A DNA stretch of 64,000 nucleotides from positions 1,376,001 to 1,440,000 of the forward strand of contig OZ245015.1 of the NCBI GenBank assembly GCA_965223705.1. Reading direction: 5' to 3'. Origin of the DNA: Myxococcota bacterium (lineage in GTDB: Bacteria; Myxococcota_A; UBA9160; UBA6930). Below are positions 33,789 to 44,576 of the stretch, in pieces. Position numbers and translations under genes: made by a program. Every line of letters starts with the position of its first letter. Positions within the stretch are counted from its first letter, which is position 1. The notes under the pieces are model-generated. The model was not told where the DNA came from and did not search any database. It saw only the letters and a list, made by a program, of their open reading frames with translations.

Positions 33789-35158
33789 GCGTCGAACACG
33801 TCGACGCCGTGGTGATCGGCGCCGGGGTTTCCGGGCTCGCTTCCGCAATCGAACTTCGCGCCGCGGGGCGCGATGTCTGCCTGCTCGAGGCCGAGAGCCG
33901 GCCCGGCGGGGTGATACAAACCGACCGCTTGGAGGGCTTCCTCGTCGAACGCGGGCCCAACGCGTTCCGGGTGTCGGCGCCTCTTCTCGCGTGGTTGCTC
34001 GAGCACAAACTCGGGAATGTATTGTTGCGCGCCGGCCCGGAATCGCGGCAGCGAGCACTTTTCCTCGACGGCCGCTTGCTGTGGCTTCCAGAATCACTTC
34101 CGGGCGCGGTCACCACCCCGCTCCTGTCGCTCGGCGCCAAGTTCCGCGCGTTGTCCGAGGTCTTTTACGCACGGGGCCCGGGGCGCGCGGAAACCGTGGC
34201 GGAGTTCGTCGGCCGCCGTTTCGGAGACGAGCTCCTCGAGCGCGCCATCGCGCCGTTCCTCGTCGGCGTCTACGCCGGAGATGAGCGCGCCCTCGGTGCG
34301 GAAGCTGTTTTCCCGCAACTCGTGGCCTGGGAACAGGAACACGGTTCCGTGTTGCGAGGTGCTCTCGTCGCGAGCCTGCGTCGCGGTCGGCCTCGGGGTT
34401 GGCCGGGGTCGTACAGCACGGCGACCGGTGTGGAAGGCTTCGCCGAAGCCCTCGCGAAGCGCCTTGGAGACGCGATCCGCTGCGAGTCGGCAGTCGAGGA
34501 GATCGTATCCGAGGAGGGACGGCTCATCGTCCGGTGTGGGGAAAGCGAATGGCATGCCCGCGAAGTCGTGTGCGCCTTACCCGCTGCCGAGGCGGCTTCT
34601 CTCCTCGCGGTGCGAGACGAAGCGCTCAGGCACTTGTTCGAAGGGATTTCCTACGCCCCGATGGCGAGCGTCGCGCTTCCGGTGGACCCCTCTGACTCGC
34701 GCGAGCGAATTCACGGATTCGGGTTTCTCGTGCCCCGAGGCGCCGGCCTGCGGCTCTTGGGGGCGCTCTTCCCTGCACGCGTGTTTCCCGACCGCGCGCC
34801 CGAGGGCCGCGAGCTCGTCATGGCCATGCTCGGCGGGACGCGCTGGCCCGGCGTGGTCGATGCGACGGACGACGCGCTCCTCGAAAGCGCGACGATCGGG
34901 CTCAAGCGCACCCTCGGCGCCGGGGTGAAGCACGCCCCGCTCGCCGTTCATCGTTGGCCCCGTGCGGTTCCGCAACCCGGTCCCGACCACCGTCGGCGAA
35001 TCGAGGCGCTGCGCAAGGCGACCACCGCGCGTTGGCCCGGCTTACGCCTCGCTGGGTCCTACCTCGACGGCGTCAGCGTCGGCGACACGCTCCTTTCCGG
35101 CGTGCGCGCCGCGCGCTCACTGATCGCCGCGAGTGAACCAACCTCCGAGCCACGCTGA
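33785..35158 (+). CDS. hemG: Proto/coproporphyrinogen oxidase, HemY-type
   Basis: GAGVSGL, GG.I.T, ERGPN, GVYAG, GFGFL, RWPRAVPQ; coupled to hemE. Confidence 0.88.
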   Translation: MSVEHVDAVVIGAGVSGLASAIELRAAGRDVCLLEAESRPGGVIQTDRLEGFLVERGPNAFRVSAPLLAWLLEHKLGNVLLRAGPESRQRALFLDGRLLWLPESLPGAVTTPLLSLGAKFRALSEVFYARGPGRAETVAEFVGRRFGDELLERAIAPFLVGVYAGDERALGAEAVFPQLVAWEQEHGSVLRGALVASLRRGRPRGWPGSYSTATGVEGFAEALAKRLGDAIRCESAVEEIVSEEGRLIVRCGESEWHAREVVCALPAAEAASLLAVRDEALRHLFEGISYAPMASVALPVDPSDSRERIHGFGFLVPRGAGLRLLGALFPARVFPDRAPEGRELVMAMLGGTRWPGVVDATDDALLESATIGLKRTLGAGVKHAPLAVHRWPRAVPQPGPDHRRRIEALRKATTARWPGLRLAGSYLDGVSVGDTLLSGVRAARSLIAASEPTSEPR

Positions 35159-35839
35159 AACGACGAAGTAGTACGCCGGGTAGGCGAGTGAGACGGACAT
35201 GCAAAGCGCCGCGAGGCGGTGCCCCGCGGTCAAGAGTGCCCCAGTCACCAGCAGGAACCAGACCCCTCCGAGTACGCAACTGATCGTCCGGAGACGCGTC
35301 ATCCGGCTCGGGTAGATGAAGGGAAGCCGGGGGAAGGTCGCGACCGCGAGGAGAAGGACGAGCGCCGAAGCCACGCCAGCAGGAACGTCGTACCACCACA
35401 AGTAGATCGCCACGACGTTCCAGTACGACGGAAAACCGAGAAAGAAGTGGTCCGCGGTCTTCGCGTCGCTTCGGCAGAAACCGTACGCGCTAGCGAGGAC
35501 GACGACCGCGGCGATTCCGAGATGCGGGACCGCGCCGCTCCCGAGCATGAAGAACGCCGGAATCACCGTGTAGTTCAGGAAATCGACGATATCGTCGAGG
35601 CGGCGTCCGTCGATATTCGGGAGCCATCGGCTCACCTCCGCCCGGCGGGCGAGGGCGCCGTCGACCGAATCGATGGCCATCGCCAGAAGCGACCACAACG
35701 CGGCCGCGCGAAAGTCGCCCGCGGCGATCGCCAACAGGCTCGCGACGCCGACGACGGCGCCGCTGGCGGTCAACGCGTGAACCGCTCCGGCGGCGATCCG
35801 GCGCGCGAAGCGTGTCGTATTGGAGTCGCTATCTTTCAC
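35117..35839 (-). CDS. Phosphatidylcholine synthase-like CDP-alcohol phosphatidyltransferase
   Basis: VHALTASG, DSVDGALARR, DGRRLDDIVDFLNY, FLGFPSYWN. Confidence 0.82.
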   Translation of the reverse strand: MKDSDSNTTRFARRIAAGAVHALTASGAVVGVASLLAIAAGDFRAAALWSLLAMAIDSVDGALARRAEVSRWLPNIDGRRLDDIVDFLNYTVIPAFFMLGSGAVPHLGIAAVVVLASAYGFCRSDAKTADHFFLGFPSYWNVVAIYLWWYDVPAGVASALVLLLAVATFPRLPFIYPSRMTRLRTISCVLGGVWFLLVTGALLTAGHRLAALCMSVSLAYPAYYFVVSAWLGGWFTRGDQ

Positions 35840-35844
35840 TCGCC

Positions 35845-36462
35845 ATGCGTTCCTGGAAGCGCCAGACCCCCGAGCGGGCAGCCTACACCGAACGAGCTTC
35901 GCAGGTCTTAACGCGCAGACTTCGAGAGCGCCAAGGGCCGGAATCGTTCATCACCAGCCGGATGGATCGCGCCGTCGCCTGGGCGCGCAAGTATTCGCTC
36001 ACCTCGACGCGCTTCTCCGGCTCGTGTTGCGCGCTCGAACTCGACGCGGCGATGGGCCCGCGTTTCGACATGCCGCGCTTCGGGTGCACCGTGCCGCGGT
36101 CGCCGGTGGATGCGGCGGACCTGCTCTTCGTCACCGGCACCGTGACGCAACGCCAGGCGCCGCTGCTCAAGCAAGCCTACGACGCGATGCCGGAACCGAA
36201 ATGGGTCATGGCGATCGGAGCGTGCGGCTGCTCGGGCGGCATGTATGACAACTACGCGGTGGTGCAGGGGGTCGACACGATTCTTCCGGTCGACGTCTAC
36301 GTCGCGGGTTGTCCGCCGACGCCCGAGGCGATTCTCGACGGCCTGCGAAAACTGCAGGCTCGCATCCAGAGCGAGCGCGTGCCTCGGCACGGGCGCCATG
36401 CGGAAGCGGAAGATTTGCCGACACTCGAAGGTCCACGGCCCGGTCCGGGACCCGGCATGTAG
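35845..36462 (+). CDS. nuoB: NuoB-like subunit, divergent
   Basis: WARKYSL, tandem CC (SCCALE), RFG, MPEPKWV, GAC, VDVYVAGCPP; start uncertain. Confidence 0.85.
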   Translation: MRSWKRQTPERAAYTERASQVLTRRLRERQGPESFITSRMDRAVAWARKYSLTSTRFSGSCCALELDAAMGPRFDMPRFGCTVPRSPVDAADLLFVTGTVTQRQAPLLKQAYDAMPEPKWVMAIGACGCSGGMYDNYAVVQGVDTILPVDVYVAGCPPTPEAILDGLRKLQARIQSERVPRHGRHAEAEDLPTLEGPRPGPGPGM

Positions 36463-36559
36463 TCGCCCTAAGCCCGGGGAACACCGCGATGAATCGACCA
36501 TCAAGCCCGGCGGGCTTCCAGCCGATTTGGAAGGGTATGACAGCGCTAGGAGGGCCTCT

Positions 36560-37963
36560 GTGAGTTCGGCTGTTCGGGCAGATCTCGCCGTTCTCGGCGC
36601 CGGACCGGGCGGCTACGTCGCCGCGATCCGCGCCGCACAACTCGGACAGAAGGTCGTGATCATCGATCGCGATCGCCCGGGGGGTGTCTGCCTCAATTGG
36701 GGCTGTATTCCTACCAAAGCGTTGCTCACGGGGGCCGAATGGGTGGAGAATCTCCGTAAACACGGGGAGACCTTCGGCATCGGTGCTTCCGGAATCACGC
36801 TCGATTACGCGAAGGCCTTGGCGCACAGTCGAAAAACCTCCGACCGCCTCTGCAAAGGCGTTCAGTCGCTGTTCAAGAAGAATCAAATCGAGTGGGTGCA
36901 GGGCGACGCGAGGCTCCGAGGTCCCCACGAGATCGACGTCGAAGGCGGCGCGACCTCATCCGTCGAGGCGGCTCAGATCATCCTCGCGACCGGTTCCGAG
37001 GAGTTTGTCCCACCCGGGGTCGAAGTCGATGGGAGTCGGGTTTTGACGTCGCGCGAGGCCCTCGAATCGCCCGTGATCCCGGACCGCCTGGTCATCATCG
37101 GCGCCGGCGCCGTCGGGGTCGAGTTCGCCTATATCTACGCGACCTACGGCGCGCACGTCACGGTGATCGAGATGGCGGACCAGGTCTTGCCGGGGGCGGA
37201 CGTCGAGGTCGGCGCAGCGCTGCAACGAGAATTCCGACGCAAGAACATCGAAGTGCGGTTGGGGACGCGATTTGAGGGCGTCAAGACGGGGAACGGTTCG
37301 GTGCAAGTCGCGGTGAGTCGCGAGGGTGTCGGCGAAGAAATCGAAGCGAACCAGCTGCTGCTCGCTATCGGTCGCCGTCCTCTCGCGGCCGATCTCGGTC
37401 TCGAAGCGGCGGGGGTCGCGACTGACGCCCGTGGCTTCATCGAAGTCGACGCCCAACTAAAGACCAGCGTGCCCAGCATCGCCGCGGTGGGGGATGTCGC
37501 CGGGCCGCCGCTCCTGGCGCACAAAGCCTCCGAGGAAGGGATTGCTGCCGTCGAGTTCGCGGCGGGCCACGACCGCGCGGCCCTCGACCACCGCAAGATT
37601 CCGGGCTGTATCTACGCGCAACCGCAAGTGGCCTGGGTCGGTCTGACCGAAGCGGAGGCGCGCGCGGAATACGGCGACGACATCCGCATCGGAAAATTTC
37701 CCTTCACCGCGTCCGGCAAGGCGATCGCATCGACACACACCGCCGGCTTCACGAAAGTCATCGCCGAGCCGCGCTATGGCGAGATCGTCGGAGCTCACAT
37801 CATCGGTCACGGCGCGACCGAGCTCATCGCCGAGATCGGTCTCGCGATGACGCTCGAAGCGACGACCGCCGAGATCATCGGAACCTGTCACGCCCACCCG
37901 ACCCTGGCGGAAGCGATCCTCGAAGCCACGCTCGCCGCCGAAGGTCGGAGTATTAACTTTTAA
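36560..37963 (+). CDS. lpdA: Dihydrolipoamide dehydrogenase (E3)
   Basis: GAGPGGY, GGVCLNWGCIPTK, GAGAVG, LAHKA, HAHPTLAE; SD AGGAGG. Confidence 0.96.
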   Translation: MSSAVRADLAVLGAGPGGYVAAIRAAQLGQKVVIIDRDRPGGVCLNWGCIPTKALLTGAEWVENLRKHGETFGIGASGITLDYAKALAHSRKTSDRLCKGVQSLFKKNQIEWVQGDARLRGPHEIDVEGGATSSVEAAQIILATGSEEFVPPGVEVDGSRVLTSREALESPVIPDRLVIIGAGAVGVEFAYIYATYGAHVTVIEMADQVLPGADVEVGAALQREFRRKNIEVRLGTRFEGVKTGNGSVQVAVSREGVGEEIEANQLLLAIGRRPLAADLGLEAAGVATDARGFIEVDAQLKTSVPSIAAVGDVAGPPLLAHKASEEGIAAVEFAAGHDRAALDHRKIPGCIYAQPQVAWVGLTEAEARAEYGDDIRIGKFPFTASGKAIASTHTAGFTKVIAEPRYGEIVGAHIIGHGATELIAEIGLAMTLEATTAEIIGTCHAHPTLAEAILEATLAAEGRSINF

Positions 37964-37982
37964 GCCCTAAAGGGAGCCGTCC

Positions 37983-39311
37983 ATGTCTATCCCCGTGGAG
38001 TTACCGGAACTCGGTGAAAGTGTCGTCGAAGGCACCATCGCCCGTTGGTTGGTGAAGGAAGGCGATCGGGTCGAACTCGATCAACCGGTCGTCGAAGTCA
38101 CCACCGACAAGGTCGATGCGGAAATTCCCGCGCCGAGCGGCGGAGTGATCGAAGCCATCCTCGTGGCGGAGGGAGAGACCGTGGCCGTGGGTACGGTCCT
38201 CGCTCGGATCGACCCCGCTGCCGAGGCGGCCATCGCGAACACCGACGCGGTCGCGCAACCGGTGGCCGCACAAGCGCCCGATGCCGCACCGAGTGCGCGG
38301 CCCACGCCTGCGGCGGCGCGTATGGCTGCCGAGCAGGGCACCGATCTCACCGGCGTCTCCGGAAGTGGCGTCGGCGGGCGCATTACGAAAGACGATGTCG
38401 CAGCCCGCGCGGCGATGGAGACTCGCCAACCACCTGCTCCGGCTCCGCCCCCGGTTCAAGCGCAATCCGCACCGGTCGCGCCGCCGGCTGCGGCGGAAGA
38501 ACGCCCCGCGCCGCAGGCCGCGTCGAACCAGGCGGACCGTCGTGTCGCCGCCGCCTCGGTGCCCGAACGCGAGCAAAAGCGCATGCCCTACGCGTCGGTC
38601 GATCTCGAAGAGGGGGATCGCGTGATTCCCATGACGCCGATCCGGCGTCTCGTCGCCGAGCACATGGTGTACTCGAAGCGCACCAGCCCGCACGTCGGAA
38701 CGGTTGCGGAGATCGATCTCGGCGGTGTCGTCGCCGTACGCGCCGCGAGCAAGGCGAAGTTTGAGGAGACCCACGGCGTCTCGTTGACGTACCTCCCGTT
38801 CATCGTGCACGCGACCGTGCGCGCGTTGCGCGAACACCCCCGGTTGAACGCTTCCGTGATTGAGGACGCGATTGTCGAGAAGAGAGATTTGAACATCGGC
38901 ATCGCCGTCGAGACGGAGAAAGGCCTGGTGGTTCCCGTCGTGCGGAACGCCGACCGCTTGTCGCTCGCAGGCCTCGCCGCTGCGATCGAAGATCTCTCGA
39001 CGCGGGCTCGAACGAAAAAGCTCACGGCGGATGATCTCAAGGGTGGGACGTTCACCGTTTCGAACCCGGGCCGGCACGGGAACCTCTACGGGTTCGCGAT
39101 CATCAATCAGCCCCAGGTCGGCATCCTTCGCATGGGAGAGATCGTGAAGCGGCCGGTGGTCCGGACCGTCGACGGTTCCGACGCGATCGTCATCCGGCCG
39201 ATGATGCATCTCGCCCTGTCGTACGATCACCGCGCAGTCGACGGCGCTCCGGCAAACGGATTCCTGTACCGGGTGCGCGAGATCCTCGAGGAAGCCGATT
39301 TCGACCTCTAG
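37983..39311 (+). CDS. Dihydrolipoamide acyltransferase (E2), single lipoyl domain
   Basis: TTDKV lipoyl-Lys, PSBD GSGVGGRITKDD, GGTFTVSN, DHRAVDG. Confidence 0.93.
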   Translation: MSIPVELPELGESVVEGTIARWLVKEGDRVELDQPVVEVTTDKVDAEIPAPSGGVIEAILVAEGETVAVGTVLARIDPAAEAAIANTDAVAQPVAAQAPDAAPSARPTPAAARMAAEQGTDLTGVSGSGVGGRITKDDVAARAAMETRQPPAPAPPPVQAQSAPVAPPAAAEERPAPQAASNQADRRVAAASVPEREQKRMPYASVDLEEGDRVIPMTPIRRLVAEHMVYSKRTSPHVGTVAEIDLGGVVAVRAASKAKFEETHGVSLTYLPFIVHATVRALREHPRLNASVIEDAIVEKRDLNIGIAVETEKGLVVPVVRNADRLSLAGLAAAIEDLSTRARTKKLTADDLKGGTFTVSNPGRHGNLYGFAIINQPQVGILRMGEIVKRPVVRTVDGSDAIVIRPMMHLALSYDHRAVDGAPANGFLYRVREILEEADFDL

Positions 39312-39963
39312 GCTCTCCGTCGATTGGCTCGGCGAAGTCGCGTACGACGCCGCGCTGGCCCGACAAGAAGCGGCTGTGGCGCAGCGAAGGGCCGGGGGAG
39401 GGCGCGATCGCCTGTTGCTCTTGACCCATCCGCCGGTCATCACGCTGGGGCGCGCTGCGAAACCGGAGAACCTTCTGACGCCTCGGGACGAGCTCGCGCG
39501 CCGCGGCATCGCGGTACACGAAGTCGCGCGGGGAGGCGACGTCACGTTCCACGGGCCGGGCCAGCTGGTTGGCTATCCCATCTTCGACTTGAAGTCCCGC
39601 GGCGCGGCCGATGTCTACGAGTTCTTGCGCTCCCTGGAGGGGTGCCTCATCGAAGCGCTGGGCGCGATCGGCGTCTCCGGGGCACGGTGTGAGGGCCGCA
39701 CCGGGGTGTTCGTCGAGAGCAGCGCGCCGCTGCGGAAGATCGCCTCCATCGGGATCGGAGTCCGTCGCTGGGTCACGTTTCACGGATTCGCGCTGAACGT
39801 GACCCTCGACCCCGACGCGTTTCGCGACATCGTTCCCTGCGGCCTTCACGACGTCGAAATGACATCGGTGGCACGGGAGCTCGGGTGTGAGCCGGACGAA
39901 AGGCTCTTTACCGCGGTTCGAGACGAGGTCACCGAGGCGTTCCGCCGAGCCTTCGACTCGTAG
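39298..39963 (+). CDS. lipB: Octanoyltransferase LipB (probable non-canonical ATT start)
   Basis: WLGEVAY..A..Q, HPPVITLG, RGGDVTFHGPGQLVGYPI, KIASIG, HGFALN, IVPCG. Confidence 0.92.
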   Translation: MSTSRLSVDWLGEVAYDAALARQEAAVAQRRAGGGRDRLLLLTHPPVITLGRAAKPENLLTPRDELARRGIAVHEVARGGDVTFHGPGQLVGYPIFDLKSRGAADVYEFLRSLEGCLIEALGAIGVSGARCEGRTGVFVESSAPLRKIASIGIGVRRWVTFHGFALNVTLDPDAFRDIVPCGLHDVEMTSVARELGCEPDERLFTAVRDEVTEAFRRAFDS

Positions 39964-40017
39964 CGCGCGGCGCCAGACGCCGGGTCTCTGTCCCAGCCGT
40001 TCGTTACTCTGCAGCGC

Positions 40018-40560
40018 GTGGGGGGGCAGGTGATATCGGTAGGCGACCGCGCGAAGCGTCGCGAACCCTCGCTCGTCGGTTCCTTCCTTCGAGCGCTGTT
40101 CGTGGCGCTGCGTCGGGGTTGGCGGGCCCGTGCGAGCGGGCGCGGCGATCGGGGCCAAGCCGGTCTCGACTATCCCGATGAATCCCGCACCGGTGCTTGT
40201 CTCGCGCGTGGAGTTCCCGTCCTCGTCGCCGGGCCGGCGGGCGCGCCCCGCTGCGTTCCCTGCTCGGCGTGCACCAGCGCGTGCCCGACCGATTGCATCG
40301 TGGTATGGCCCCAGGGTGGGGGCGTCGAAGCACCCGAGCGCTTCGAGATCGACATGTCGCGTTGTATCTACTGCGGCCTCTGCGAAGCGGTGTGTCCCGA
40401 AGAGGCCATCGTGCTGAGCAGCGAAGTCGCCATCGCCGACTACGAGCGGAGGTCGCTGCGTTTCGACCTGGCGAATCTTCTCGTACCCGAGGAGCTTCTG
40501 GACGACTCGCTGTCTCGCGCTCGCGCAACGCGATCCCAGGTCCGGGATCCCGCCGCATGA
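40018..40560 (+). CDS. nuoI: NuoI-like 2x[4Fe-4S] subunit, divergent
   Basis: YPDE, CVPCSACTSACP, FEIDMSRCIYCGLCEAVCPEEAI. Confidence 0.82.
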   Translation: MGGQVISVGDRAKRREPSLVGSFLRALFVALRRGWRARASGRGDRGQAGLDYPDESRTGACLARGVPVLVAGPAGAPRCVPCSACTSACPTDCIVVWPQGGGVEAPERFEIDMSRCIYCGLCEAVCPEEAIVLSSEVAIADYERRSLRFDLANLLVPEELLDDSLSRARATRSQVRDPAA

Positions 40561-41036
40561 GAGCGACGCTTGAGGCGCTACAAGCCGCGTTGCCCTCCGC
40601 GGTCCTCGAGCGCCGCGACGCCCTCGATTGTGTGGAGCTTCGGGTCGCATCGCCGTTCATCGTCCCGCTGACGCGCTTTCTCCGCGATCGCGCGACTCCG
40701 CCCTTCTCAGTCCTCATCGACCTCACGGCCGTGGACTACCCCGAGAGAACGCCGCGGTTCGATCTCATCTATCAGCTCCTTGCCGTGGAGCCCGGCGTCC
40801 GCATTCGGCTCGTGTGTGAAGTCTCCGAGCGACCCGCCGAAGTGGATTCCATCCACGCGGTCTTCCCCGCGGCAAACTGGTTGGAGCGTGAAGTGTTCGA
40901 TTTGTACGGCGTGCGCTTCCTGGGTCACCCCGACCTTCGACGGATCCTCCTCGACGCGTCTTTCGACGGTCATCCACTGCGGAAGGACTACGACAAACGG
41001 CGTCGCCAGCCCGTGCGTTCAGGGACGACGCGTTGA
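40557..41036 (+). CDS. nuoC: NuoC-like subunit
   Basis: DLTAVDY, RF.L.Y.L, ANWLEREVFDLYG..F.GHPDLRRIL, GHPLRKDY; ATGA overlap with nuoI. Confidence 0.9.
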   Translation: MRATLEALQAALPSAVLERRDALDCVELRVASPFIVPLTRFLRDRATPPFSVLIDLTAVDYPERTPRFDLIYQLLAVEPGVRIRLVCEVSERPAEVDSIHAVFPAANWLEREVFDLYGVRFLGHPDLRRILLDASFDGHPLRKDYDKRRRQPVRSGTTR

Positions 41037-42133
41037 CCGCGCCTCGTGACGAACTCGTTCTCGACCCGACACATCCCGCGACGCACGGCGCTGTCTCTTT
41101 TCGCGTCGAGGTCGAAGACGAACACATCGCCGTCCTCGATCTCTCCGTCGGTTTCCTGCATCGCGGCTTTGAAAAAGAATGCGAAAGTCGTCGCTTCTCC
41201 GAGGCGATCCCCTACGCCGATCGCCTGAACTACCAATCTTCGGTGTTGTCGAGTCTCGCCTATTGCCTCGCGGTCGAGCGATTGTTCGAAACACCGGTCA
41301 GTGAGCGCGCGGTTTGGCTGCGCACGTTCGCGGGTGAGCTCGCCCGAATCGCGGACCACTTGACGCGCCTCGCTGCGACGGCGGACGCGCTGGGTCTCGC
41401 CGCGGCGGTCGCTTACACGACGTCGGCGCGGGAGCTCATCTGGGACGCACTCGAGCTGCTGACGGGCGCGCGGGTGACCCATCACTATCTTCGCATCGGC
41501 GGCGTCCGTGGGGACCTTACGCAAGCGGCCGACGCGTGCGCGCGATCCGCGCTCGATCGACTCGACGACTTCGTCGGAGATTTCGAGCGCCTGACCAGTC
41601 GAAATCGCGCTGTGCTCGCTCGCCTGCGAGGGGTGGCTTCGATCGATCGGGACGTCTGCCTTCGCTACGGCGTGACGGGCCCGATTCTGCGAGCGAGCGG
41701 TTGTCCGCGAGATATCCGCAAGGACGAACCGTACCTCGCCTACCGCGACGTCGACTTCGACGTTCCCGTGGGCACGAACGGTGACAATGCGGACCGACTG
41801 CTCGTATGCATCGAAGAAGTGCGCCAGAGTGCCCGGATCGCGCTGCAGTGCCTCGACCGACTAGCCGACCTCGCTCCCGTCGACGAGAGGCGCCTCGACG
41901 AAACGCGAGCGCTACCCGCGGGCCAATGCTACGTCCCGACGGAATCCGCGAACGGTGAGCTCGGTTTCTTTATCGTCTCGAACGGCGACGAGATGCCACA
42001 TCGCGTTCGCTGTCGGGCACCGAGCTTCTTTCATGCGGCGGCGCTCTCGGAGATCCTCCGAGGAGAAGCAATTTCCGAACTGTCTCCGACGTTCGAGTTG
42101 TTGAACGTCGTAAGCGGCGAATGCGATCGATAA
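41033..42133 (+). CDS. nuoD: NuoD-like subunit, divergent and shortened (366 aa)
   Basis: HPATHG, GFLHRGFEK, DRLNY, ELARIADHL, GPILRASG, GELG, RAPSF, GECDR; no NiFe CxxC motifs. Confidence 0.88.
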   Translation: MTAPRDELVLDPTHPATHGAVSFRVEVEDEHIAVLDLSVGFLHRGFEKECESRRFSEAIPYADRLNYQSSVLSSLAYCLAVERLFETPVSERAVWLRTFAGELARIADHLTRLAATADALGLAAAVAYTTSARELIWDALELLTGARVTHHYLRIGGVRGDLTQAADACARSALDRLDDFVGDFERLTSRNRAVLARLRGVASIDRDVCLRYGVTGPILRASGCPRDIRKDEPYLAYRDVDFDVPVGTNGDNADRLLVCIEEVRQSARIALQCLDRLADLAPVDERRLDETRALPAGQCYVPTESANGELGFFIVSNGDEMPHRVRCRAPSFFHAAALSEILRGEAISELSPTFELLNVVSGECDR

Positions 42134-42624
42134 TCCCACCGCTACGTCCTTTCGGACTCCGCTTGCATCACGACGGTCGTTGGACCCACGAGGGCCATCC
42201 GATCTTGAACCGCAAGCTTCGCGAAGCGTTCGATCGCGGCGTCGCTTACGCACCGGACGAGGACGTATTCGTCGTCACGTTGGGGCACTACCGCGGCCAA
42301 ATCGAGGTCGAAGAAGCTGCGTTCTTCGTGCGCAGCATCGACCTCGAACGCGGAACGGTCACGCTTTCCGACGGAAGTGAAGAAGCGCTCGACCCGGGGA
42401 CGCTCGGGTTGTCGGAGCGCGACGGAGCCTTACTCGCCAGTGTCGCGAGACCCGGGACGGACCGTCGCGTCCTCGCGCGCTTTGACGCCGGAGCGCACGC
42501 CGAACTCTTGCTGGCGGTGGAGCCAACCGGCGAGGGATTCGAAATCGCGCTGGGCGGCCGTCGCTACTCGCTCCCCGACGCGCTCACGCGCGAGGCTTCC
42601 GAGAGTCCCAGCGGCCGATTGTGA
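42121..42624 (+). CDS. Hypothetical protein (DUF1285-like N-terminus), overlapping nuoD end
   Basis: DGRWTHEG.PI...L...F, I.VEEA.F.V pattern; 13-nt overlap with nuoD. Confidence 0.6.
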   Translation: MRSIIPPLRPFGLRLHHDGRWTHEGHPILNRKLREAFDRGVAYAPDEDVFVVTLGHYRGQIEVEEAAFFVRSIDLERGTVTLSDGSEEALDPGTLGLSERDGALLASVARPGTDRRVLARFDAGAHAELLLAVEPTGEGFEIALGGRRYSLPDALTREASESPSGRL

Positions 42625-44576
42625 TAGCGCATGTACTTGACGGTCTCGTACGTGGCGAAGGTCTGGGCGGATAGCTCCGCCGCCACTTCGGGCTCGGCGG
42701 CGACTAGGTTGTCGCGCGCGTTCTCACTGTAGATGCGATGCAGCGAAGGCTTCGTTCCGTCGTGCTGGACGGTGAAGTAATACTCGTCCGTCACGAGACC
42801 GAGCAGCGGACCGTGCCCTTGGCCGGTGATGGTGAACGCGTACCGCGGCCCCCTCTCGGGCTCGAGCAAGCTCTGACCGAGTGTTGTCGCGATACCTCCC
42901 ACGCCGGCCAAGTCGACCAGCGTCGGCATGAGGTCGACCGTGCTTCCGATGCGGTCGCTTTCGCCGGGCGCGATCCATTTGGGCCCGTATAAAACGAGGG
43001 GCACGTGGTAGCGCGTGAGTCGAAGCTGATCTTCTCCCGCCGGCCGATGTCGTGTCGACGCCGGCGATCCGTGATCGCCAAAGAACGCAAAGATCGTGTC
43101 GTCGAAATACCCTTCACGGCGCGCGGCTTCGAAGAACCAGCCCAGGCTGTGGTCCATCAGTCGCATCCCGTCGTACTCCGCGACGGTGTCGAAACCGTGG
43201 GGAACGACTTCGGAATCCGTCAGGTTCGAAGGTTCGAAACCTCGGCTGTCTTCGGGGATCGTAAACGGCTTGTGGTTTCCCGCGGTGTGGATGAAGGCGA
43301 CGAAAGGTTCTTCGGTTTCGCGCAGGACGCGATTCGCCTCTTCGAACAAGTGGAGGTCGCTGATCCCCCACACATCGACGCGGGGCGAGCTGTAATCGCC
43401 TTCTTCGTAGATACGGGCGCCCGGGATGTTGTGTTGGAGGAGCGCCCGAATGTTCGCCCAGCTCGCGCTCCCGCCCAAGAAATAGAATTTCTCGTACCCG
43501 CGAAACGCGTTGTAGAGGGTGTGTTGCTCGACGATCAAGGGGTTTCGGGTGGAGGTCTTCGAGGGTTCGACGTCCGGTAGCCCGGTGAACGCTGCGAACA
43601 CAGCTCGCGCCGTCCCACCGTGGGGCGCGTAGAATCGTCGGAACAGCATGCCGTCTCGCGCGATGGCATCGAGGTTCGGCGAGGGATCGAGTGCGTTGCC
43701 GGAGAAGCCGGTCTTGTAGTACGCGAGGGATTCGAGCAACACGATGACGACGTTCGGCTTGCCTTCGCGCTGCCCGCTCGATTCGACTGGACGCCGGTAG
43801 TTGAGCTCGGAAGCGTCGCGGCCGGGAACCTCCAGGTAGCCCGACATCCGCGGGTACATCGCTCGTGCGGTGTCGACGTCGAATTCGACGGTTCGATTCT
43901 TCACCGTGTCGAGGAAATAGAGCGCGGGGTTCAGGGCGACGGCGGAAGCGAACTCGTGCGTTGAGAAGAACGCGTCGCTCCAACGCAGCGGATAGTAGGA
44001 GAGCTTGCCGTAGATCCCGCCGGCGAAGATGAGCACGCCCAGAGCGGCCGCTGTGAGCTGCGCATTGCGGCTCGCTCGCGCCGCACCGGCCACGGGAAGG
44101 GTTCGCTTGAGGAGGACGACGTAGAGACCCGTGAGAGCTGCGACGCCCAGCAGTGCAGGCACTACGGGGTAGCTCTCCCAAAGCACGCCGAAGCTCTCGC
44201 GCGGGTTGTGGAGAAAGCGGAGTGAGGACGCATCGAGGCGCGCAGCGAGATAGCCGTAGTGACCCAGGTCGAAACCGTGGACAAGGGTGAGCAGCACCGT
44301 CGCCACCGCGAGATAAGCGATCGACCAAGTTCGCGGTCGTCCCGGGTGCGCGGGGTTCCAGCGCGGAACTGCGCCGATGAGCGCCAACGGAACGTGGATG
44401 CACAACAACAAGCGGAGGTCGAATTTCGCCCCGATGTAGAACGCCTCGAGGATGGAACGGCCGGGTGCGGGATCGAGCGGGTCGCGGAAGATCCACCAGA
44501 ACGCCGCGCGGAAGAGGCCGAGCAGGATCCACTGGATCAAGAGGCTCGTCGCGAGAAAGCGGAGGAGGGATGTCAC
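42564..44576 (-). CDS. LTA synthase (LtaS)-family membrane sulfatase-fold protein
   Basis: About five N-terminal TM helices, PNVVIVLLES, GGT (catalytic Thr), NHKPF, FGDHG, STVDLMPT. Confidence 0.88.
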   Translation of the reverse strand: MTSLLRFLATSLLIQWILLGLFRAAFWWIFRDPLDPAPGRSILEAFYIGAKFDLRLLLCIHVPLALIGAVPRWNPAHPGRPRTWSIAYLAVATVLLTLVHGFDLGHYGYLAARLDASSLRFLHNPRESFGVLWESYPVVPALLGVAALTGLYVVLLKRTLPVAGAARASRNAQLTAAALGVLIFAGGIYGKLSYYPLRWSDAFFSTHEFASAVALNPALYFLDTVKNRTVEFDVDTARAMYPRMSGYLEVPGRDASELNYRRPVESSGQREGKPNVVIVLLESLAYYKTGFSGNALDPSPNLDAIARDGMLFRRFYAPHGGTARAVFAAFTGLPDVEPSKTSTRNPLIVEQHTLYNAFRGYEKFYFLGGSASWANIRALLQHNIPGARIYEEGDYSSPRVDVWGISDLHLFEEANRVLRETEEPFVAFIHTAGNHKPFTIPEDSRGFEPSNLTDSEVVPHGFDTVAEYDGMRLMDHSLGWFFEAARREGYFDDTIFAFFGDHGSPASTRHRPAGEDQLRLTRYHVPLVLYGPKWIAPGESDRIGSTVDLMPTLVDLAGVGGIATTLGQSLLEPERGPRYAFTITGQGHGPLLGLVTDEYYFTVQHDGTKPSLHRIYSENARDNLVAAEPEVAAELSAQTFATYETVKYMRYHNRPLGLSEASRVSASGSE

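Follow-up and report, generated by a model that had tools for sequence, protein, structure and literature searches.

Complex I without its NuoEFG head is generally regarded as ancestral and as a functioning redox pump. The closest described systems are the NUO of Bacteroides fragilis and the NDH-I of Prevotella, which according to the published accounts likewise consist of NuoABCDHIJKLMN and occur beside a Na+-translocating NADH:quinone oxidoreductase (Na+-NQR, below also Nqr) (PMC7002350, PMC6560451, PMC3144371); the comparison with these Bacteroidetes enzymes is by gene set and published description. In B. fragilis, NADH oxidation is reported to be carried out by Nqr, the headless NUO showing neither NADH:quinone activity nor a colonisation phenotype (PMC7002350). 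Here we analyse a comparable complex, encoded in part by an eight-gene locus within a stretch of 64,000 nucleotides (the window) of the Myxococcota bacterium contig OZ245015.1 (GCA_965223705.1, positions 1,376,001-1,440,000); the genome that holds it (G000) measures 4.56 Mb in 2 contigs and is 95% complete. We found that nuoB, nuoI, nuoC and nuoD of this locus form the quinone module (Q module) of the sole complex I of G000, that all 11 remaining subunits of this complex are strongly eroded with their frames open, and that erosion of complex I is a repeated event in the order, with at least five origins and about 50 of 193 genomes affected.

A complex I of 11 subunits at two loci

A search of the G000 genome with tblastn and PF00346 yielded no second nuoB/C/D/I set, so that the genes of the window are the only genomic copies and not the paralogous Q module that a sequence-only reading of the window had proposed. 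The same reading had called the module stand-alone, which holds within the 64 kb but not in the genome, where nuoA-H-J-K-L-M-N, the membrane arm, is found at a distance of 1.38 Mb (C1:27591-34631, minus strand). Canonical relatives carry nuoA-E-F-G-H-J-K-L-M-N at the same gpsA/feoB site; in G000 nuoA, which is below Pfam detection and was recognised through its position and by alignment, directly abuts nuoH, with nuoEFG missing between them. A canonical NuoF was not found in G000, the matches to NuoE, NuoF and NuoG being confined to a formate-dehydrogenase-like locus, and the earlier suggestion of an enzyme without NuoEFG was in this respect borne out. Since nuoBCDI occur once, the arm lies at a distance and nuoEFG are missing, the two loci make up a single, split complex I with 11 subunits. 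Its gene set (NuoA, B, C, D, H, I, J, K, L, M and N) is complete and all its frames are open, NuoE, NuoF and NuoG of the 14-subunit enzyme being absent from G000. The ligands of the Fe-S clusters N2, N6a and N6b are all present in the window proteins, and G000 has an intact nqr operon.

A further cluster of G000 (L007, C1:482977-489907) contains a fused NuoE/NuoF-like gene, a molybdenum cofactor guanylyltransferase-like gene, and aldehyde:ferredoxin oxidoreductase-like and formate dehydrogenase alpha-like genes (names from sequence inspection).

Erosion of the subunits and their key residues

Alignments bore out both the divergence of the Q module (Table 1) and the drift of its quinone cavity that had been noted in the sequence-only reading, and the motifs quoted there were confirmed, i.e. 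CCALEL, SPVDAAD and every N2 cysteine in NuoB, two CxxCxxCxxxCP motifs in NuoI, and HPATHG and DRLNY in NuoD. For the subunits of the arm, the identity to canonical relatives and the identity among these relatives were 25 and 73% for NuoA, 31 and 72% for NuoH, 27 and 63% for NuoJ, 32 and 75% for NuoK, 28 and 65% for NuoL, 33 and 55% for NuoM, and 37 and 54% for NuoN. The GC content at second codon positions (GC2) was raised by 0.06-0.25, in G000 in the nuo genes only.

Residues counted in the eroded copies are given in the numbering of the canonical G014, followed by the E. coli number that we take to be equivalent (assigned by motif). Titratable Lys and Glu were mostly lost across these copies, Lys often having become Arg. 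In NuoL neither E160/E144 nor K430/K399 was retained in any of 19 copies; in NuoM, K282/K265 was retained in 3, E152/E144 in 4 and K251/K234 in 2 (mostly Arg) of 18; and NuoN K257/K247 was retained in 1 of 18. The acidic loop of NuoH kept E236 in 0 and E246 in 2 of 21 copies, and NuoK E36 was lost in all 13 eroded rows shown. Helix-end Arg and Asp and the NuoN E133-K/R217 pair were present in 18 of 18 eroded copies. In G000 the equivalents of NuoL E144, K399, H254 and K342, of NuoM K234, K265 and E407, and of NuoN K247 and K395 have changed, and NuoK E36 and the NuoA acids are lost; NuoM E144, NuoN E133/K217 and NuoK E72 are present. The full series of charged residues along the central axis (NuoH/A/K/N/M/L) was not found in G000. 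These residues are described as essential and as the core of pumping (PMC10212512, PMC9271201). With the gene set complete but the central axis broken, we do not class the complex as a working complex I.

The NuoD of the window has an internal deletion of ~26 residues. Compared with Thermus thermophilus Nqo4 it has H34, H38 and Y87, D139 is replaced by Ala with an Asp one residue before, and the TPF motif is lost; H38, Y87 and D139 (T. thermophilus numbering) are residues of the quinone site. The D139 equivalent was lost in all 22 eroded rows, and so were H38 and Y87 except in the three-protein clade of the window, with G110 retaining the Tyr. The other two proteins of this kind, P0002 (65%) and P0003 (62%, labelled Myxococcales by its source), are the only ones to share the derived deletion and substitutions of the window NuoD, and that they do so at 62-65% identity argues that the eroded state is old. 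In five genomes (G147, G156, G162, G149 and G110) the clusters of NuoI are deleted or without Cys ligands. All N2 cysteines were present in 16 of 16 eroded NuoB rows.

Between lipB and nuoD of G162 (L213), G156 (L216) and G147 (L217), the N-terminal part of NuoI is apparently fused to NuoC, the entire ferredoxin domain being deleted.

Recurrence in the order and relation to Nqr

Among the 193 genomes of the order-wide survey, 163 had a NuoD match, 173 a NuoH match, 90 a full NqrB and 113 a canonical NuoF. The eroded class of 50 genomes was assigned by hand from a best NuoH E value above 1e-70, leaving out weak matches taken as fragments (G043, G060, G093, G098, G191), the intermediates G117 and G118, and genomes in which the best match is a stronger, extra NuoH (G138, G140, G152-154, G162); the arm locus was read in 23 of the 50. 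A full NqrB is present in 49 of these genomes and a partial NqrB at a contig end in the other one, and none has a canonical NuoF. Neither Nqr nor NuoF was found in 15 genomes of the survey, many of which are incomplete. In a tree of gpsA and feoB (30 genomes) the eroded genomes stand at at least 5 separate points among canonical ones, G008 for instance being placed beside the canonical G017 with a support of 1.0. The eroded arms of G006, G008 and G015 are 25-38% identical to that of G000, no closer than to canonical arms. No claim on origin was drawn from the NuoD tree, a quick one in which long branches came together.

The eroded genomes can be arranged in a series. Only NuoEFG are missing in G000, g67, g71, G101 and G109; NuoI has in addition lost clusters or Cys ligands in the five genomes named above; the arm alone is left in G006, G008 and G015 and, going by the NuoD search, likely in G108, G111 and G112; and no complex I genes were found in G001, G002, G007 and G033, which are incomplete or fragmented genomes.

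Two side observations concern this survey. The long branch of G111 in the gpsA and feoB tree likely reflects a feoB paralog. The genomes left out for their extra NuoH belong to eroded genera, and this strong match (E 1e-109 to 1e-127) is perhaps that of a reacquired complex I-like operon.

Selection on the eroded genes

The ratio of nonsynonymous to synonymous substitution rates (dN/dS) was calculated after Nei-Gojobori with bootstrap bounds, which is rough at high GC; values distorted by frameshifts or paralogs (G147 nuoL and feoB, G019/G022 nuoM and nuoN) were dropped. For the lineage of the window itself no DNA of a close relative was found, the best identity being 55% order-wide and 48% in metagenomes among the matches listed. 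In pairs from g71, an eroded genus independent of G000, the ratio was 0.22-0.28 in 4 pairs for the Q module and 0.13-0.23 in 3 pairs for the arm, and no upper bound exceeded 0.34; neighbouring control genes gave 0.09-0.20 and canonical Q modules 0.12-0.15. Values that far below 1 argue that the eroded copies are not pseudogenes, and the decaying duplicates that the sequence-only reading had named as a possible refutation were not seen. The nuo genes of G000 have 0 stops in 3256 codons. They carry an excess of 782 amino-acid differences, along with 59 in-frame gaps; had this excess arisen neutrally, one would, by a rough estimate, expect ~21 stops.

Possible function of the remnant

We propose that this complex I, which has lost nuoEFG and most pumping residues, is kept as an assembled structural membrane complex without redox coupling, now that NADH oxidation has likely passed to Na+-NQR, a proposal to which we give about an even chance. 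We infer that the 11 subunits would still assemble in the membrane, without pumping protons or oxidising NADH, and that selection would now act on fold and assembly, for instance in a scaffold for other membrane complexes. The residues that keep the fold persist and the chemistry does not, and for this reason we favour a structural role over ion exchange, quinone reduction, decay and feeding by Lpd. Docking of NuoH on NuoD plus NuoB, from alignments of eroded copies only, was predicted with a score of 0.67 against 0.47 for the best control (contact agreement at least 89%, partner pLDDT (predicted local distance difference test) at least 74); this is exactly at the margin. Among solved pairs 116 of 157 attain the mark, and among mismatched pairs 2 of 215. 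Since like complexes have been solved, the pass may derive from these known structures.

Several observations speak against a purely structural complex. The window proteins retain all Fe-S ligands of NuoB and NuoI and also H38 and Y87 of NuoD, which fits an active quinone reductase. Both Nqr and a canonical NuoF occur in 25 of the 113 NuoF genomes, so Nqr does not force erosion, and the association with Nqr carries no P value because kin are not independent. Both relatives from the same genus (75-87% complete) lack nuo genes at the lpd locus and gave no arm matches, which makes the complex dispensable. Furthermore, the eroded copies have no shared new motif that points to a scaffold partner. 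In a wider form, which we hold at somewhat less than even confidence, complex I would have turned repeatedly and independently into a catalytically dead pseudo-enzyme in Nqr-bearing Myxococcota-like lineages, its arm having a second essential job (scaffold or ion exchange), and these lineages would form a natural uncoupled series.

A redox-independent Na+/H+ exchanger of the Mrp type, which would interconvert the sodium gradient of Nqr and the proton gradient with the Q module only as a cap, is consistent with the survival of the arm beyond the Q module in G006, G008 and G015 (by NuoD search also in G108, G111 and G112), with the presence of Nqr in 49-50 of 50 eroded genomes and with the absence from G000 of Mrp-type subunits beyond nuoL/M/N. 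Nevertheless, the titratable central residues, which Mrp needs as well, are largely lost or turned into Arg, three PF00999 exchanger genes are present in G000, and many eroded genomes hold a second set of three antiporter-subunit genes, likely Mrp; we consider this function fairly unlikely. The c subunit of the ATP synthase has the Gln, Glu, Ser and Tyr of the sodium signature, and not the Thr. Precedents have been described: an exchanger was proposed for the headless Nuo of Prevotella (PMC6560451), marine actinomycetes have nuoAHJKLMN by itself (PMC3314556, PMC6676996) and the deactive form of mammalian complex I is reported to be an antiporter (PMC3464577).

The ligands of N6a/N6b and N2 and the H34, H38 and Y87 equivalents in the window proteins would also suit a non-pumping ferredoxin- or flavodoxin:quinone oxidoreductase, in which electrons would pass from NuoI via N2 to quinone, uncoupled from the arm. 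G000 has two PF01558 2-oxoacid:ferredoxin oxidoreductase genes, and varied donors have been proposed for 11-subunit enzymes (PMC3144371). However, D139 is gone, as are the TPF motif and the NuoH acids, and independent eroded lineages have lost H38, Y87 and even the NuoI clusters and yet stay under selection, which makes such an enzyme unlikely. Slow decay, in which the complex brings no benefit and selection only purges misfolded or orphan subunits until a whole module is deleted, would agree with the stepwise losses (first EFG, then BCDI, then everything), the drift to GC-rich codons, a Q-module dN/dS about twice that of canonical pairs (0.22-0.28 versus 0.12-0.15) and the B. fragilis nuo deletion reported to be without colonisation defect (PMC7002350). 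It is improbable in the light of g71, nearly all 31 genomes of which have the complex over a dS near 1 with dN/dS far below 1, and a useless operon should, we would expect, be easily silenced and then deleted.

The eight-gene locus and its neighbours

The eight co-oriented genes described from the sequence were all found as open reading frames (ORFs), with their families supported by profile matches (Table 1). A short-read contig, which may itself be the source of the assembly, matches 34500-43500 with 0 differences. The -10 element that had been suggested for nuoI was not recovered, a sigma-70 consensus scan of 35500-42800 giving 0 promoter-like sites with 0.7 expected.

Table 1. Features of the locus (window coordinates). 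Identity pairs give the window copy versus canonical relatives, then canonical relatives among themselves.
Feature	Position	Strand	Profile and remarks
nuoB	35845..36462	+	PF01058; eroded; N2 ligands retained; single genomic copy; 54% vs 80% identity
lpd	36560..37963	+	TIGR01350 above cut-off; ordinary dihydrolipoyl dehydrogenase (E3); uneroded; 165/172 invariant columns retained
E2	37983..39311	+	PF00198, PF00364 and PF02817; DHRxxDG intact; 164/169 invariant columns retained; likely SucB
lipB	39313..39963	+	TIGR00214; homology from 39313; earliest in-frame common start codon GTG at 39376
nuoI	40018..40560	+	TIGR01971 (below cut-off); eroded; both CxxCxxCxxxCP present; 42% vs 72% identity
nuoC	40557..41036	+	TIGR01961; eroded; 46% vs 68% identity
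nuoD	41033..42133	+	NF004739; eroded; H34/H38/Y87 equivalents present; D139, TPF lost; 50% vs 79% identity
DUF1285-like gene (ORF8)	42121..42624	+	weak DUF1285_N match, E 6e-4, below cut-off; conserved neighbour
CDP-alcohol phosphatidyltransferase gene	35117..35839	-	divergent neighbour, conserved; synteny marker only

The order nuoB-lpd-E2-lipB-nuoICD, in which the displaced nuoB and the I-C-D arrangement had been called non-standard, turned out to be an ancestral layout that also occurs with the canonical 14-subunit complex I: nuoB and lpd are adjacent in 16 of 20 loci with canonical NuoD, the others being one with nuoB next to E2, one rearranged and two cut by a contig end. Some canonical clusters also contain lipA, E1 genes or a second E2. 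None of a further 20 loci, of which 19 are eroded and 1 is canonical, has lpd; E2 directly follows nuoB in 19 of them, the contig of the other one ending earlier. Deletions have removed the nuo genes in G001, G002, G006 and G008 and left lpd-E2-lipB-ORF8 in place, so that ORF8 falls outside the complex. No change in rate is seen in the window's Lpd, E2 and LipB, whose identities match those of controls. The gene calls of G000 contain two E2s with the catalytic DHRxxDG, that of the window and one in the aceE-aceF-lpd cluster, and sucA stands alone at C1:809843-812815 without an adjoining E2; with sucA orphaned and no other E2 free, the E2 of the window is most likely SucB, the partner of SucA, and lpd-E2-lipB are likely ordinary neighbours that serve 2-oxoglutarate dehydrogenase.

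In mycobacteria, Lpd, DlaT and AhpD form a relay through Lpd and lipoyl-E2 that does without E1. In G000 an E2 freed from E1 and tied to acceptor genes was not found, and adjacency is the sole basis of the model in which Lpd feeds the complex. That Lpd or lipoyl-E2 hands NADH electrons to the Q module, as the sequence-only reading had suggested from the interleaved, co-oriented genes (in most informative loci nuoB is separated from nuoI/C by E2-lipB), is very improbable, given that the layout is older than the loss of nuoEFG, that none of the 19 other eroded Q modules examined has lpd beside it, that lpd-E2-lipB are retained where the nuo genes are deleted, that the rates of Lpd and E2 are unchanged and that E2 is required as partner of SucA.

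Homology to LipB starts at 39313, directly after the E2 stop, yet the first in-frame ATG, GTG or TTG is at 39376; congeners have 55 nt of spacer, and their lipB starts normally. The LipB of the window may thus lack ~21 N-terminal residues or start unusually, the sequence around its start being confirmed by short-read contigs. As had been noted, lipA and E1 are absent from the 64-kb window. In many relatives lipA sits between lipB and nuoI, and it is missing at 39963-40018 of the window; the lipA of G000 is located in the aceE-aceF-lpd cluster (C1:2900851-2901702). By their first start codons, nuoB and the divergent phosphatidyltransferase gene start 6 bases apart (35839-35845), which leaves no room for a promoter, so the true start of one of them is probably further downstream. 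A gene for 80-85 amino acids separates nuoD from the DUF1285-like gene in the canonical loci of G014 (L038:5857-6114), G028 and G013 and is missing in the window.

Comparison with known systems

These genomes show that the headless state can also arise secondarily and repeatedly, and that coupling chemistry can be shed while the genes are under selection, which implies a function of the membrane arm that is independent of pumping. They offer natural variants for telling structural residues from pumping residues, and annotation wrongly credits such genomes with complex I respiration. In the literature searched, subscription journals and supplements being outside its scope, we found no report of repeated secondary erosion of complex I tied to Nqr.

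The genes of the canonical 14-subunit complex I of the order are orthologous to those studied here and share both their loci and their arrangement, but in the complex described here nuoEFG are missing, identity is 25-54%, and central-axis and quinone-site residues are lost. Enzymes of 11 subunits are described in PMC3144371 as ancestral and as functioning like the 14-subunit core, whereas in the genomes studied here nuoEFG were lost secondarily and repeatedly, and most coupling residues have disappeared. The nuoAHJKLMN of Salinispora and marine Streptomyces is, like those of G006, G008 and G015, an arm without redox module; according to the published accounts it is an additional copy, acquired by genomes that have a full NDH-1 and no Nqr (PMC3314556, PMC6676996); the arms studied here are instead vertically inherited, sole and eroded, and G000 still has its Q module. 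Finally, the L/M/N-type subunits are homologous to those of the Mrp Na+/H+ antiporter (PF00361), but the combination of an MrpA-G set with titratable residues is not found in the arm nuoAHJKLMN of G000, which has nuoA/H/J/K and not mrpE/F/G and from which the titratable central residues are mostly absent.

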